IMG/VR virus record: IMGVR_UViG_3300045157_000010
Length of the DNA stretch: 64,000 nucleotides
Reading direction: 5' to 3' (one strand)
Origin: a virus
The stretch's first letter is position 1. Each line of letters starts with the position of its first letter. Positions 2,702 through 50,891 of the stretch are shown here, one piece after another. A model generated the notes under the pieces. That model worked only from the letters and a program-made list of their open reading frames with translations, was not told the origin of the DNA and made no database searches. The position numbers and the translations under genes are program-made.

Positions 2702-3412
2702 CTATCCCCAGGTGAAGCCGTCTGGTTCGTTCGATTCGGCCACCTGTTCGTTTCCGGGTTGGCGTTCGTCGTGCCCTGCACCTCGGCTACGGTTACATGC
2801 CCTGTGCAGTAGGCGGTCAGCGTCCCCTGGCCCGTGGTGCTTCAGGTCTCGCGTGTGGTCGGCTTCTAGTGCCGCGCCGTCGAAGTTCTTGGCGGGGTCT
2901 TTCCACATTGGGCGTTGGCACCATTCACACGGTGTGCCGTCTTTCATGTTGAACATGAGGCGTTTGCGTACTTGTTGGTGCCTGTGATCGTAGCCGCGTT
3001 GTGCTGCTGTCTTCGGCTTGTCTCGGTCGTACCATGCGGCTGCGACCTTCAGCATGTGCGGTGGCCGCTCGGCCTTACACCGTCGCATGACTACAGCCTT
3101 GCCGGGGTCGATGGTGCGGATCTCCGCTCCGGCTTGCCTGTACTTGTCGAGGGTCTTAGCAGACGGCGTGCTGTCTACTATCCACACGTCTGTGGTGTTG
3201 GCGTGCTTCACGGCTTCCGTGATGGCTGCTCGTCGTGCGGCCTGTGTCACTGCCTTCACCGTGTCGGTGTGCGTGTGGTTGTCCACAGTCTCGCCGGCGA
3301 TTGTGTTGGCGATTTCGTCGTAGTCGATGGTGATGTCGCCGGGTTGCCGGTGGTCTCGTATGTAGGTGCTCTTCCCTGCGGCGGGGGGACCGGTGATGAT
3401 GTGTAGGGGGAT
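2702..3412 (-). CDS. P-loop NTPase-HNH endonuclease fusion, likely packaging-associated (start uncertain: ATC 3412 or GTG 3517)
   Basis: GPPAAGKST Walker A; CEWC...EADH...LHRACN HNH zinc motif; position before cos/terS. Confidence 0.8.
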   Translation of the reverse strand: MPLHIITGPPAAGKSTYIRDHRQPGDITIDYDEIANTIAGETVDNHTHTDTVKAVTQAARRAAITEAVKHANTTDVWIVDSTPSAKTLDKYRQAGAEIRTIDPGKAVVMRRCKAERPPHMLKVAAAWYDRDKPKTAAQRGYDHRHQQVRKRLMFNMKDGTPCEWCQRPMWKDPAKNFDGAALEADHTRDLKHHGPGDADRLLHRACNRSRGAGHDERQPGNEQVAESNEPDGFTWG

Positions 3413-3477
3413 GGTGTGTGCCCTCCCCTCTGGTGTTGTAGGTGCCCCCCCCTGTTCGATGAGAGGGGGGGGTGTTG

Positions 3478-3519
3478 TGCGTGCCGGGGGCTTGAACCCC
3501 TGGTGCCTGCCTGTCACGC
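3478..3519 (-). ncRNA. Minihelix-like T-loop module
   Basis: GCGTG/CACGC stem enclosing CCAGGGG-TTCAAGC-CCCCGG. Confidence 0.3.
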
Positions 3520-3606
3520 GCCGTGATGGCTGGCGTTGTCGGGTCTCGTCGTCCGGCGAGGATCACCGACAGCCGCGCTTCCTACCATCCGCAAACGGCA
3601 GGTTCG

Positions 3607-3677
3607 TGCGCCATCCGGGACTCGAACCCGGGTCTCCAGCTACTTGCACTGGTGCGAACCAACTTCGCCAATGACGC
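3607..3677 (-). tRNA. tRNA-like gene with non-canonical anticodon loop (GCAAGUA; nominal AAG), no encoded CCA
   Basis: GCGTCAT/ATGGCGC acceptor, GCGA/TCGC D stem, CCAGT/GCTGG anticodon stem, CCGGG-TTCGAGT-CCCGG T arm; lacks U33 and purine 37. Confidence 0.7.
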
Positions 3678-3822
3678 TGCCCCGCGTCCGGGGCGTTCCC
3701 TAGTTCCGCGTACGTCACCAGGGCTTCGGCGTATCCGTAAGGATTACCGGTAACAATGGGGCACCTGCCTGTAGCAACCAGTACCCCTCGGTTCAGTGAG
3801 CATGACCACGCTGACTGAACCC

Positions 3823-3894
3823 TGCGCGATGGAGGGGAATCGAACCCCGCACTGCCCGGAGTGACCGGCCAATCTGCGACCTTTGCAGCACCGC
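3823..3894 (-). ncRNA. Degenerate or non-canonical tRNA-like cloverleaf
   Basis: GCGGTG/CATCGC, CTGC-AAAGGTC-GCAG, CCGG-TCACT-CCGG, GGGG-TTCGATT-CCCC. Confidence 0.5.
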
Positions 3895-3915
3895 TAACCT
3901 ACGGGTAACGACTCC

Positions 3916-3977
3916 AAAAACGCTGACCAGTCCGGGGACGGTCAGGAGCAAAGCCCCCTCGGCTAGCAGGGAGGGGG
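3916..3977 (-). terminator. Two hairpins 3' of tRNA-Leu, the second followed by a U tract
   Basis: CCCCCTC/GAGGGGG (3954-3977); CTGACC/GGTCAG followed by CGTTTTT (3916-3945). Confidence 0.4.
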
Positions 3978-4053
3978 TGGTACTTCTAGCAGGATTCGAA
4001 CCTGCACTGAACGGGTTTTGAATCCGTTGCCTCTGCCATTGGGCTATAGAAGT
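3978..4053 (-). tRNA. tRNA-Leu(CAA), short variable loop, encoded CCA
   Basis: ACTTCTA/TAGAAGT acceptor, loop TT-CAA-AA, GCAGG-TTCGAAT-CCTGC T arm, A73-CCA; 76 nt. Confidence 0.9.
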
Positions 4054-4218
4054 AGGTGCCTTGCGTTTACAGTCCGTGATCCGGCGGCAACAATCGTTTG
4101 TCCGGTGTCGGCTTGCGTAAGCGTTTGGCATGAACCCCGGCAGGAGGACCGGGGTAGGAGAACCACAGAAGGAGAAGAGGTAAGGGTTTCAAGTCTTCCC
4201 TGAAAACCTTACCCAATT

Positions 4219-4227
4219 ATTATAGCA
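4219..4227 (-). promoter_or_regulatory. Extended -10 promoter TGCTATAAT driving the tRNA locus and probably late genes
   Basis: Perfect TGnTATAAT overlapping the stop codon of the upstream gene; no consensus -35. Confidence 0.7.
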
Positions 4228-24860: not shown

Positions 24861-24870
24861 CTCTGTCTCA

Positions 24871-24932
24871 CAGTGTCTTGTGGTGGACTCGAACCACCAG
24901 CCCTCCTCAGGACCGCACCATGCCAAGACTGC
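24871..24932 (-). ncRNA. Minimal tRNA-like cloverleaf with canonical T arm
   Basis: GTCTTG/CAAGAC; GCA-TGG-TGC; GGTCC-TGAGGA-GGGCT; GGTGG-TTCGAGT-CCACC. Confidence 0.6.
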
Positions 24933-27247: not shown

Positions 27248-28354
27248 ATGCCCACACCACAGAAATACCAAGCCGCAGCCGGCACCCGCTGGCGCATCCA
27301 ATACCGCGACCCCACCGGCACCCGCCGCACCAAAACCGGCTTCAAAACCAAGAAACAAGCCGAGCACTGGGCAGCACAGAACATCGTTGACCAGAACGAC
27401 GGATCATGGATCGACCCCACCTCCGGGAAGATCACCGTCGGACAACTCGGCGCTGAGTGGCTGGAGAATCAAACCCACCTGAAGCCGTCCACGATGCGCG
27501 TCACCGAATCGACATGGCGCGTACATGTCGAACCGGCATGGGGACACCGCCCCGTAGGGTCCATACGCCCCTCTGAGGTCCAAACATGGGTCAGCCGCCT
27601 CGACGGTGGGGCAACGACCGTACGCAACGCACACGGCATCCTGGCGAAGATTCTGGACGTTGCCGTGATGGACAAGCGCATACCCGCCAACCCCGCCCGT
27701 GGCGTGAAGCTCCCCGTCAAGAACAAGGGGGTGAAGGTGTACCTCACCGCCGAACAGTTGCACCGGCTCGTCGACGAGTGCGGGGACCAAGGGGATCTGA
27801 TCTACCTCCTCGGAACATCCGGGATGCGATTCGGGGAAGCGGTCGCGCTCCGGGTGAAGGATGTGGACTTCATGCGGCGACGGATCAGCATCACGCGCAA
27901 CGCCGTGACCGTGAAGCAGGACGTGATTATCGGCACGCCCAAAACAGGGGAGGAACGCACCGTTGCGGTGGCTGAGGATGTTCTCACAGCCCTGTCCGTC
28001 AGGTGCCAGGGGAAGGCGCGCAACGACCTCCTATGGACGCGGCGGGACGGAGGGCTACTCCGCACCCTGGGGCACAACAGCTTCTTCCATAACGCGCTGC
28101 GGCGTATCCAGGCGGACGATCCCGAGTTCCCGTGGCTGACCCCGCACGGCCTACGGCATGTCGCAGCCGGACTGATGGTGTCGTCCGGGGCGAACGTGAA
28201 GGTTGTGCAACGGCAACTCGGACACGCGTCCGCGACCATGACCTTGGACCGGTACGCGGACCTGTTTGACGACGATCTCGACGGGGTGGCGGCGCGCATG
28301 GATGAGATCTTGACGCGTGGGGGTGCGTCAAATGTGCGTCAAATGAAAAAATAG
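27248..28354 (+). CDS. int: Tyrosine integrase
   Basis: GMRFGE, PKT, HGLRH, LGH, TLDRY; N-terminal arm-binding domain. Confidence 0.97.
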   Translation: MPTPQKYQAAAGTRWRIQYRDPTGTRRTKTGFKTKKQAEHWAAQNIVDQNDGSWIDPTSGKITVGQLGAEWLENQTHLKPSTMRVTESTWRVHVEPAWGHRPVGSIRPSEVQTWVSRLDGGATTVRNAHGILAKILDVAVMDKRIPANPARGVKLPVKNKGVKVYLTAEQLHRLVDECGDQGDLIYLLGTSGMRFGEAVALRVKDVDFMRRRISITRNAVTVKQDVIIGTPKTGEERTVAVAEDVLTALSVRCQGKARNDLLWTRRDGGLLRTLGHNSFFHNALRRIQADDPEFPWLTPHGLRHVAAGLMVSSGANVKVVQRQLGHASATMTLDRYADLFDDDLDGVAARMDEILTRGGASNVRQMKK

Positions 28355-28382: not shown

Positions 28383-28388
28383 CTGAGC

Positions 28389-28436
28389 TGGTGCGCACTG
28401 ACGGGTTCGAACCGCCGACCTGCTGGGTGTAAACCA
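28389..28436 (-). other. attP common core: 3' half of tRNA-Val(TAC)
   Basis: TGG-TTTACAC-CCAGCAGGTC-GGCGG-TTCGAAC-CCGTC-AGTGCGC-ACCA; no 5' half. Confidence 0.9.
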
Positions 28437-49435: not shown

Positions 49436-50891
49436 TGTTGACCTCCTCCCCCGGCGTTGCCGCCGAATCATCAACAGGAACATCAAGCCCCGTAGCCTTC
49501 AGCGCGTCATCCTGCGAAACACCAGCATCAACAAGTGACTTCGTAGCCGCCGCCAACTGGGCCAACTCCGCAGCGTCCGCCCCGTCCGCCGCATCAGTCT
49601 TCACATCTCCGGCAGCGACAGCCTCAGACAGAGGACGCTTACCAGGCAGCGAGTAGACACGCCGAACGTGCTCCTCCAGATCCTTATCCGCGAAGATCGC
49701 CTTAGCGTTCACCAGCGTGGCGAGATCCTGAGCAGACAGTTCCTTCTTCGACGCAATCGGATCAACAACAACCCGAGGGCACAACCCCGTATAACCGGGG
49801 AACGCCACATCGACAAGATCCTCAACGATGTGCTGAGTCGCGGTGTCCGCGATCCAGTCTGCAATCGTCTGCAACGACTGGATGAACAGATCCGACTGCG
49901 TTTCCGCCAGTGCGTACGAGCCTCCCCCGCCGTCGAGGTTCAGGAAGTGAGCCAGCACCGAACGGGCAATCATCGCATCGTGATACGAAATCGACTCACG
50001 AGGACTGACCAGCTGACCATTCACGCCCAACAGCTGAAGCTCAGCCTTCGCCGGGATCGCGCCGCCCGCCTCAGCGCCCGCACGAATCCCCCGTGCAAGC
50101 TCCTGACCATGACGCAGATCCTCAGCAGGGTTCTCCGCAAGCTCGGAACCCTTGTAAATCGGCACACCCATGCCGTTACGCTCCAGAACCTGCATCTCCA
50201 GGCGCAAAGCCTGATCCCGCAACTTCCAGTGCTTGAACGCGGGACGCAACACCGAAGTGCCCTCCCACGACGTATCACGCGGCGCATGACAATAAGCCAC
50301 AAGACGATCAACGGGGATAGTCGCACCATCCGCCCGCGCCGTGCCGGTGCTAGCCCCAACTTGCTCCACCGACGACAGACCACCATCCTCTGCCACATTG
50401 ATACGGGTCAACGTCCCCGGATACCGGGGGGCCAACTTAGCGAGGTGCATACGGCCCCCGCGCTCCTCATAAACCTGCTCAAAGAACATCACACCGTACT
50501 GCAACGACAGAAGAGCCTGCTGCAAGTGCTCAGTCCACGACACACGCCCACGCCGACGCGCCACCGGCTCCTTGGGAGAATCACCCAACACCGGAAGACG
50601 CAGATCCTCCGACACCAACGCCACAACCTCATCCGGTGCGCCGTTCGGGTCCAACCGCCAATCGGCACGCTCAATCGGCAACCACAAAGCATTCAACACC
50701 GAAGTAACCTGAGCATCCTCACGCCCCATCTTCGCAAACACCGCAGCCGAATGCGGAAACCGAAGCTCCCAATTATCCTCAGCCGTAATAGCGCCCTTAG
50801 ACGAAATAGCGTGGCCGATCTCCGGCGTACGCCTAGAATCGGAGGTTGGCGACAAATTGCGAACCTTCCGAGGCTGAAATGGATTCCACAT
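49428..50891 (-). CDS. Portal protein
   Basis: 487 aa after terL; G.SVLRPAFKHW..K, ERNGMGVP. Confidence 0.88.
   Translation of the reverse strand: MWNPFQPRKVRNLSPTSDSRRTPEIGHAISSKGAITAEDNWELRFPHSAAVFAKMGREDAQVTSVLNALWLPIERADWRLDPNGAPDEVVALVSEDLRLPVLGDSPKEPVARRRGRVSWTEHLQQALLSLQYGVMFFEQVYEERGGRMHLAKLAPRYPGTLTRINVAEDGGLSSVEQVGASTGTARADGATIPVDRLVAYCHAPRDTSWEGTSVLRPAFKHWKLRDQALRLEMQVLERNGMGVPIYKGSELAENPAEDLRHGQELARGIRAGAEAGGAIPAKAELQLLGVNGQLVSPRESISYHDAMIARSVLAHFLNLDGGGGSYALAETQSDLFIQSLQTIADWIADTATQHIVEDLVDVAFPGYTGLCPRVVVDPIASKKELSAQDLATLVNAKAIFADKDLEEHVRRVYSLPGKRPLSEAVAAGDVKTDAADGADAAELAQLAAATKSLVDAGVSQDDALKATGLDVPVDDSAATPGEEVNSE

Follow-up and report, generated by a model that had tools for sequence, protein, structure and literature searches.

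A non-coding phage locus combining tRNAs, an orphan cloverleaf and a mini-tRNA of a compact RNA family found in actinophages

The stretch of viral DNA analyzed here (the window, 64,000 nucleotides of IMG/VR record IMGVR_UViG_3300045157_000010) corresponds to a 50,174-bp phage genome read beyond its own start, with positions 1-300 equal to 50175-50474 and all features recurring at +50174. The study concerned a non-coding locus on its minus strand (4218-3430), located between a gene for a helix-turn-helix (HTH) protein and a gene for a P-loop kinase fused to an HNH endonuclease (kinase-HNH). Four tRNA-shaped modules were found in this locus, spaced by hairpins: a tRNA-Leu (tRNA1), an orphan cloverleaf (module 3), a second tRNA-shaped gene (tRNA2), and a mini-tRNA (module 4). 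The latter belongs to a compact RNA family, here named R1, that is unannotated in GenBank actinophages and outside Rfam 15.

The modules were located by scanning both strands of the genome for the T-loop pattern TTCRANN with a closing stem of 4 bp or more. Four minus-strand T-loops were recovered exactly where a preceding sequence-only reading had placed them (3994-4000, 3838-3844, 3620-3626 and 3490-3496), while the rest of both strands (~99 kb) contained only 7 more such arms, with ~0.06 expected in 790 nt. None of the three open reading frames (ORFs) overlapping the locus matched a PHROG family, in agreement with the earlier statement that no credible ORF is present. The folding energy of the whole non-coding stretch was lower than that of shuffled sequences (z = -2.85, 20 shuffles), with the lowest values at 3678-3825 (z = -4.35) and 4120-4218 (z = -4.33, -39 kcal/mol), and the T-loop modules by themselves showed unexceptional folding energies. 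The picture of a non-coding locus, structured beyond chance and holding tRNA mimics as well as tRNAs, was in this way borne out. An Infernal-type search against Rfam, which had been proposed together with that picture, matched the tRNA family and left GOLLD and ROOL unmatched, both at the gathering score and at E-values up to 10.

The claim that only one of the modules is a normal tRNA held in part, as two of the four were called tRNAs by both ARAGORN and the Rfam model, the second of them with an abnormal anticodon loop. The first, tRNA1, is a tRNA-Leu(CAA) (3978-4053, minus strand) that was called by ARAGORN and scored 58 bits against RF00005, whose gathering score is 29, and classifies as a tRNA. 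It is canonical in its T-loop and GG D-loop and in its anticodon loop UUCAAAA (with U33 and A37), and has a short variable loop; A73 and CCA are both encoded, and it shares 79-86% identity with annotated tRNA-Leu genes of Corynebacterium, Mycobacterium, Streptomyces and Rhodococcus phages. The TTG share of leucine codons was 21.8% in the phage vs. 3.3% in Corynebacterium loci (a small host sample, filtered on GC3), and this excess fits the usual codon-supply role for tRNA1.

The second tRNA-shaped gene, tRNA2, with anticodon AAG (3606-3677, minus strand), was also called by ARAGORN and reached 47.7 bits against the same gathering score of 29, the Rfam match being obtained in E-value mode only. 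All four of its stems pair, its T-loop and GG D-loop are canonical, and the cloverleaf is the minimum-energy fold (z = -2.42). Its anticodon loop, GCAAGUA, has C33 and U37, lacking U33 and a purine at position 37, and falls short of a decoding-competent loop; CCA is not encoded. A homolog in the sequence L003 is visibly more degenerate.

Module 3 (3824-3894, minus strand) was recognized from folding and from relaxed ARAGORN searches as an orphan tRNA-like cloverleaf. It comprises an acceptor stem GCGGUG/CAUCGC, a D-like arm CUGC-AAAGGUC-GCAG that is displaced, a middle arm whose loop is GUCACUC or UCACU, and a T-arm in which a C-U mismatch accompanies 4 bp. This cloverleaf, the fold of minimum energy, makes up 58% of the ensemble (z = -1.46). 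ARAGORN called it tRNA-Val(CAC) only at relaxed thresholds of 50-70%, RF00005 gave no match at E-values up to 10, and the module does not classify as a tRNA. No homologs were found in IMG/VR or in GTDB genomes, a pattern scan returned one stemless chance match, and an exact 25-mer of the module was absent from 185,579 species genomes.

Module 4 (3473-3523, minus strand) was identified with a covariance model of R1 built without the copy of the window, at 51.4 bits (E = 1.5e-11) over model positions 1-50. It consists of an outer stem GCGUG/CACGC (3515-3519 with 3479-3483), a mini D-loop C-A-GGCA-G (3507-3513), a T-arm (3485-3502) with loop UUCAAGC at 3490-3496, and an AC tail (3477-3478), and a G in the linker pairs with the last T-loop base, C. 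It carries the structural features of an R1 member with one deviation, a bulged A in the T-stem. Module 4 is the only full R1 copy in the genome; other members of the family range from 30 to 73 bits. A 43-nt stretch of it is 93% identical to unannotated intergenic DNA of the Streptomyces phages Saftant and Kaine.

The R1 element, ~45-50 nt long, mimics the top half of a tRNA, with an acceptor-like 5-bp stem, a GG D-loop and a T-arm, and without an anticodon arm. Its consensus was defined as a 5-bp outer stem, a C-N-GGCA-G mini D-loop, a 5-bp T-stem with loop UUCRAGY, and an AC tail. When IMG/VR was searched with a loose pattern in which only unpaired bases were fixed, 134 copies (97 distinct sequences) were found in 57 stretches, and 45 diverse copies were aligned. 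Standard pairs were formed in 99.3% of the cells of this alignment, and 8 of the 12 pairs changed on both sides, including the one-pair closure of the C-N-GGCA-G D-loop. The tertiary pair that joins the linker base to the final base of the T-loop was GC in 23 copies and AU in 22. None of 500 shuffles reached the observed pairing values, and controls in which the pairing was slid paired at 32-52%. The invariant positions are those of the tRNA elbow, namely G18 and G19 (GG), T54, U55, C56, A58 and the pair G53-C61. Across 30 sources, the R1 model retrieved 111 copies, up to 14 per locus; among 108 distinct hits, 99.8% of the cells paired (2 of 1,188 unpaired), G-U pairs being present. The presence of G-U pairs with almost no unpaired cells establishes that the sense strand of R1 is the gene strand. 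R1 thus covaries as strongly as curated RNA families do. The earlier expectation that structure at the locus is maintained was therefore confirmed for module 4 at least, which by the covariation of its family is under clear structural selection. A proposed collection of homologs for covariation analysis succeeded for R1 and for two spacer hairpins with compensatory changes (see below), and failed for module 3, for which no homologs were found. The possibility that columns 3-8 of R1 represent a -10 promoter element was considered and rejected, as T8 covaries with A41.

A BLAST search with a single R1 copy gave matches in at least 138 GenBank phages, 109 of Streptomyces, 25 of Mycobacterium and 4 of Gordonia, and among the records listed R1 lay in unannotated gaps in 39 of 40. 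In bacterial genomes (185,579 species) it was restricted to five stretches, all multi-copy arrays that look like prophages. No match for R1 was found in Rfam 15, nor any description in the literature, where a catalogue of 10,006 candidate viral RNAs published in 2023 (PMC10690425) may hold it unnamed.

The placement of R1 between genes was highly regular. For 123 IMG/VR copies, a same-strand stop codon preceded the element by a median of 8 nt and the next start codon followed it at a median of 35 nt, and the GenBank annotations of the phages Saftant and Oaker agree with this stop-R1-start placement. Eight copies were found in Saftant, all on the gene strand and each in an intergenic gap of the leftward operon of the right arm, and in six of eight folded copies R1 was followed by a variable hairpin and then by the ribosome-binding site. 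In Gordonia phage Morgana, one copy is located in the leader that precedes an operon's first gene. The first copy of the Saftant operon (11469-11560 of L012, minus strand) overlaps a good promoter, TTGACT-17-TAGGGT, whose spacer holds the stoperator-like GTGTGACAGTGTGAG; a transcript from this promoter would be devoid of the 5' strand of the first R1 outer stem.

In five of ten calls, ARAGORN with default settings read R1 copies as over-long (82-86 nt) tRNA-Arg(CCT) or tRNA-Ile(GAT), the misreadings occurring in the Streptomyces phage contigs L011, L031, L044, L050 and L053. Calls of these two tRNAs in R4-like phage genomes are likely R1 artefacts. A linkage of R1 with tRNA genes in R1-rich Streptomyces phages was likewise discarded, since the ARAGORN tRNAs there were mostly R1 read as intron-bearing tRNAs.

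In the window, module 4 is on the sense strand upstream of the kinase-HNH gene, is preceded by tRNA2 and a hairpin, and lies 64 nt before the start position. A C8...G8 hairpin (3445-3472, minus strand; -19.9 kcal/mol, z = -3.63) stands between it and the ribosome-binding site, a Shine-Dalgarno sequence GAGGGGAGGG (3421-3430, minus strand). The start position of the kinase-HNH homologs aligns here to ATC (3410-3412), 8 nt after GAGGGGAGGG. The order R1, C8/G8 hairpin, GAGGGGAGGG, start position is the layout of most Saftant copies. No sequence variant was seen at the ATC in four runs. The only in-frame canonical start of the kinase-HNH gene is a GTG within the outer stem of module 4 (3515-3517), which would add 35 residues, translated through R1 and the C8/G8 hairpin.

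Upstream of the modules, the perfect box announced in the sequence-only reading was found at 4219-4227 on the minus strand. This extended -10-like sequence, TGCTATAAT, is the sole TGNTATAAT in the genome (0.14 expected), overlaps the TAA stop codon (4220-4222) of the upstream HTH gene, and is a putative promoter box. It is followed by a strong hairpin, GGGUAAGG...CCUUACCU, and a C/U-rich tract (4178-4214, minus strand; fold of 4120-4218), which from the predicted fold could serve either to terminate the upstream operon or to stabilise a transcript at its 5' terminus. The leader between this first hairpin and tRNA1 (4141-4180, minus strand) is C/U-rich and contains three CUCCU motifs, one of which forms the loop of a predicted hairpin CCCCGG-UCCUCCUG-CCGGGG (4134-4155, minus strand). 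Folding predicted two further minus-strand hairpins after tRNA1, CCCCCUC...GAGGGGG (3954-3977) and CUGACC...GGUCAG followed by CG-UUUUU (3916-3945). The second one looks like an intrinsic terminator, which a simple terminator scan missed because its stem is bulged, and tRNA1 may accordingly constitute a transcription unit of its own.

The long hairpins that had been proposed for the spacers were recovered only in part. The hairpin GGUUCAGU...ACUGAACC (3790-3821, minus strand), in the region of lowest folding z (3678-3825), and the inner TGTCGG/CCGACA pairing at 3537-3571 stood, whereas doubt attaches to the long-range TGCCCC/GGGGCA pairing, since its 3' arm is taken up by a local hairpin with a GACG tetraloop (GCCCCG-GACG-CGGGGC, 3679-3694, minus strand) that is conserved in the sequences L002 and L003. 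This local hairpin, one base before tRNA2, is 96-100% identical ahead of the tRNA2 homolog in L003 and L002, and a similar one, CCUACG-GACG-CGUAGG, was found in L071. The hairpin at 3537-3571 (minus strand) is two-tiered, with a conserved 8-nt loop, CCGGACGA. It is 78% identical to positions 311-342 of L071, with compensatory changes in both tiers (CUCG/CGAG vs. CUCC/GGAG and UGUCGG/CCGACA vs. UGUGG/CCACA). The sequence CGGAC recurs in hairpin loops of the locus (CCGGACGA, GACG and CCCCGGACU, at 3549-3556, 3685-3688 and 3931-3937, respectively) and is also contained in the loops of the matching L071 hairpins (325-332 and 673-688). The loop motif CCGGACG was not enriched genome-wide (33 seen, 23 expected).

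The modules of the locus recur separately in other phages. Relatives of tRNA1 were found in many phages and R1 in Streptomyces and Mycobacterium phages, the GACG hairpin recurs together with tRNA2 in L002 and L003, and the hairpin with the CCGGACGA loop recurs in L071. Relatives of the kinase-HNH gene, which in IMG/VR, GTDB genomes and metagenomes do not exceed 61% identity over the full length, mostly have neither tRNA nor R1 upstream. The exception is provided by the closest relatives, L071 and L077 (61-71% protein identity), in which a non-coding stretch of ~1 kb upstream of the gene contains a tRNA-Asn, one T-loop module and a pair of R1 hits scoring 36 and 50 bits. A real tRNA together with mini-tRNAs is thus seen at the kinase-HNH junction in two lineages. 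Finding R1 within a real tRNA cluster, also in a related phage, gives circumstantial support to a link with tRNA processing.

On the minus strand, the genes preceding the locus are those for thymidylate synthase (10449-9682), a DNA methyltransferase, ribonucleotide reductase (7767-5626), and two small genes, the second encoding the HTH_17/MerR-like protein (4915-4220). The locus is followed by the AAA_33 P-loop kinase-HNH fusion (to 2702), the small terminase (2480-2214), the large terminase (2200-659), and the portal gene. This order places it at the junction between replication and nucleotide-metabolism genes on one side and packaging and structural genes on the other, and from position only the locus would be expected to be expressed late, as the sequence-only reading had assumed. 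A tyrosine integrase gene is present on the plus strand (27248-28354), adjoined by a 32-nt attP core (~28385-28416, minus strand) that matches the 3' end of tRNA-Val(TAC) base for base in several Corynebacterium species, including Corynebacterium variabile and C. kalidii. This identity points to Corynebacterium as the likely host genus, and the phage is a temperate Corynebacterium-type siphophage, with no close relative among GenBank phages. The idea that modules 3 and 4 are attP-type tRNA fragments was rejected, the real attP being the one beside the integrase; it also fails because the 25-mer of module 3 is absent from the species genomes and the R1 pattern occurs in only five stretches of them. 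Nor is the locus likely to be a cos site, as the genome end of the Corynebacterium phage StAB falls after its HNH gene. Identical DNA was found in ant-metagenome runs. Six ant metatranscriptome runs contain the stretch, and in the four that were analyzed single contigs of 4-15 kb covered the whole region at flat depth.

A second kind of mini-cloverleaf was observed in the immunity region (24868-24932, minus strand), where it precedes a small ORF and an anti-repressor gene. Its acceptor-like stem, GUCUUG/CAAGAC, has 6 bp; of its two hairpins, one of 3 bp carries a GG loop and one of 6 bp a GANG tetraloop. A perfect T-arm and an AC tail complete the element, and a 17-bp hairpin comes next. The same element was present, with three compensatory changes, in one IMG/VR phage (L096, 783-850), and a further pattern scan gave no additional members.

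Taken together, the locus is best read as a precursor region of tRNAs and tRNA-like modules whose function would be processing by host enzymes and protection of transcript ends, an interpretation to which we assign a probability of roughly 0.55. It would represent a string of independent tRNA-shaped modules spaced by protective hairpins, in which a working tRNA-Leu(CAA) would supply UUG decoding. Minihelix substrates made of an acceptor/T-arm stack are known to be accepted by RNase P and RNase Z of bacteria and by the CCA-adding enzyme. Since all determinants of the elbow and of the acceptor/T-arm stack are present, host RNase P may be expected to cut 5' of every acceptor stem, and RNase Z, or another enzyme like it, just past the discriminator. 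Such cuts would release the tRNA or tRNAs and, at the mini-tRNA, would give defined, hairpin-protected ends to the kinase-HNH/terminase message. Apart from module 4, the locus is for the most part an unremarkable phage tRNA region, partly eroded.

Several observations weigh against this interpretation. In the window R1 is preceded by a tRNA, not by a coding gene, and its distance to the start position is 64 nt instead of ~35 nt; a single copy in the genome cannot punctuate an operon. The R1 stack, with 5 bp, an A-G layer and 5 bp, amounts to ~11 layers compared to 12 in tRNA. The terminator-like hairpin with its U-run lies between tRNA1 and module 3, leaving co-transcription of all modules unassured. 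Module 3, devoid of homologs, may be plain debris, and tRNA2 may or may not decode. In addition, the even coverage in RNA libraries may reflect DNA carry-over, transcript ends not being visible in the contigs.

The alternative that survives best is a decaying tRNA cluster, already named in the sequence-only reading, in which only tRNA-Leu(CAA) works, tRNA2 and module 3 are neutral pseudogenes, the hairpins are old terminators, and R1 was brought in by recombination and is idle. Parts of this account stood: the tRNA2 homolog in L003 is clearly degenerate, most kinase-HNH relatives have no upstream tRNA, and module 3 combines a mismatched T-stem with the lack of any homolog or Rfam match; moreover, StAB manages with tRNA-Leu alone. 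However, module 4 retains every family feature, the tertiary pair included. In tRNA2 all four stems are intact and only the loop is odd, compensatory changes have preserved two spacer hairpins in diverged phages, and L071 shows the same mix of one tRNA plus mini-tRNAs. As an explanation of the whole locus, decay is therefore possible but doubtful.

A role in trans was also weighed. The defective tRNA bodies and the mini-tRNA could form a decoy array of stable small RNAs that sequester host factors reading the elbow or acceptor end, with toxins of tRNA-directed defence systems or the machinery of tRNA processing as conceivable targets. The genome does hold graded tRNA shapes without a usable anticodon loop, and Streptomyces phages mass R1 copies in an operon that also carries an Ocr-like anti-restriction gene. 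Yet the rigid stop-to-start placement of R1 points to action in cis, the single copy found here would be a weak sponge, and no tRNA-repair ligase was seen beside the kinase domain. R1 has no anticodon arm and cannot divert anticodon nucleases, which makes the decoy function originally suggested against such enzymes improbable for module 4. Overall, decoys appear an unlikely explanation. Similarly small is the chance that tRNA2, module 3 with its stunted middle arm, R1 and the mini-cloverleaf of the immunity region are excised as stable small RNAs and act as graded mimics competing with host tRNAs for elbow- and acceptor-reading proteins, such as acceptor-end-modifying defence toxins or tRNA maturation enzymes. 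If this were the case, R1 would not be a passive cutting mark but would represent a new class of phage RNA acting in counter-defence or host takeover.

Less probable still is transcription control, with the hairpins and R1 serving as terminators or attenuators without U-tails, or as anti-terminators, that gate read-through from early/middle to late genes. The position at the early/late junction and the several G+C-rich hairpins, one with a U-run, would suit such control, but a T-loop with its GG partner and a covarying tertiary pair constitutes a tRNA-elbow fold and not a terminator, and the presence of R1 between nearly every gene of one operon in other phages is ill-suited to termination. 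Finally, a single large ornate RNA of the GOLLD or ROOL kind containing a tRNA, suggested by the long non-coding stretch beside tRNAs in a phage and compatible with its overall z of -2.85, is highly improbable, given that neither GOLLD, ROOL nor any other large Rfam family matched at E-values up to 10, no long-range conserved pairing was found, the U-run hairpin interrupts the stretch, the modules recur singly in different phages, and in relatives of the flanking gene the region is missing entirely.

If processing at tRNA-like modules indeed operates as proposed, many unexplained intergenic gaps in phages would be accounted for, and comparison with known systems helps to place it. The tRNA-Leu of StAB is 85% identical to tRNA1 over the aligned 58 nt and is located 46 nt before an HNH gene at the right genome end; tRNA1 likewise precedes an HNH-type gene, whereas in the window ~560 nt of tRNA-like modules and hairpins separate the two. 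In phage phiC31 (L099, 40702-41446), the single tRNA (Thr) is immediately followed, at the right genome end, by a small gene and an HNH endonuclease gene, which indicates that the arrangement of a tRNA before an HNH gene recurs across actinophages. R1 was not found in phiC31, and the classical work on its early-region transcripts thus has no bearing on the R1 family.

In R4-like Streptomyces phages, the intergenic gaps that hold R1 also contain repeated stoperators (PMC10276819). The identification of R1 as a stoperator was rejected, since the stoperator is a different 14-nt DNA motif, TGTGCAAGTGTNGC, found just upstream of R1 and absent from the locus of the window. GOLLD and ROOL RNAs are phage-borne and often near tRNA genes, as is the locus described here, which differs from them in giving no model match and in being modular instead of having one conserved fold.

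Among RNAs that imitate tRNAs, mascRNA of MALAT1 is released by RNase P and RNase Z. The tRNA-like domain of transfer-messenger RNA (tmRNA), mascRNA and R1 all keep the acceptor/T-arm stack and the elbow without a decoding anticodon arm. ARAGORN found no tmRNA in the locus, the mascRNA model reached only 17 bits, on tRNA2, and R1 differs from both RNAs in being smaller and multi-copy and in having no sequence or model match to them. The closest parallel in arrangement is offered by the t-elements of plant mitochondria, tRNA-like folds processed by RNase P and RNase Z to make mRNA ends (PMC1920247). Like R1, t-elements are short mimics of the acceptor stem and T-arm without an anticodon arm, located between or beside coding regions. 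R1, on the other hand, occurs in the DNA of phages of Actinomycetota, with a consensus of its own that includes a GG D-loop mimic of one pair and a tertiary pair that covaries, and while t-elements are cleaved by RNase P and RNase Z, for R1 such cleavage is inferred only. Should it take place, bacteriophages would shape their polycistronic messages by tRNA punctuation resembling that of mitochondria.

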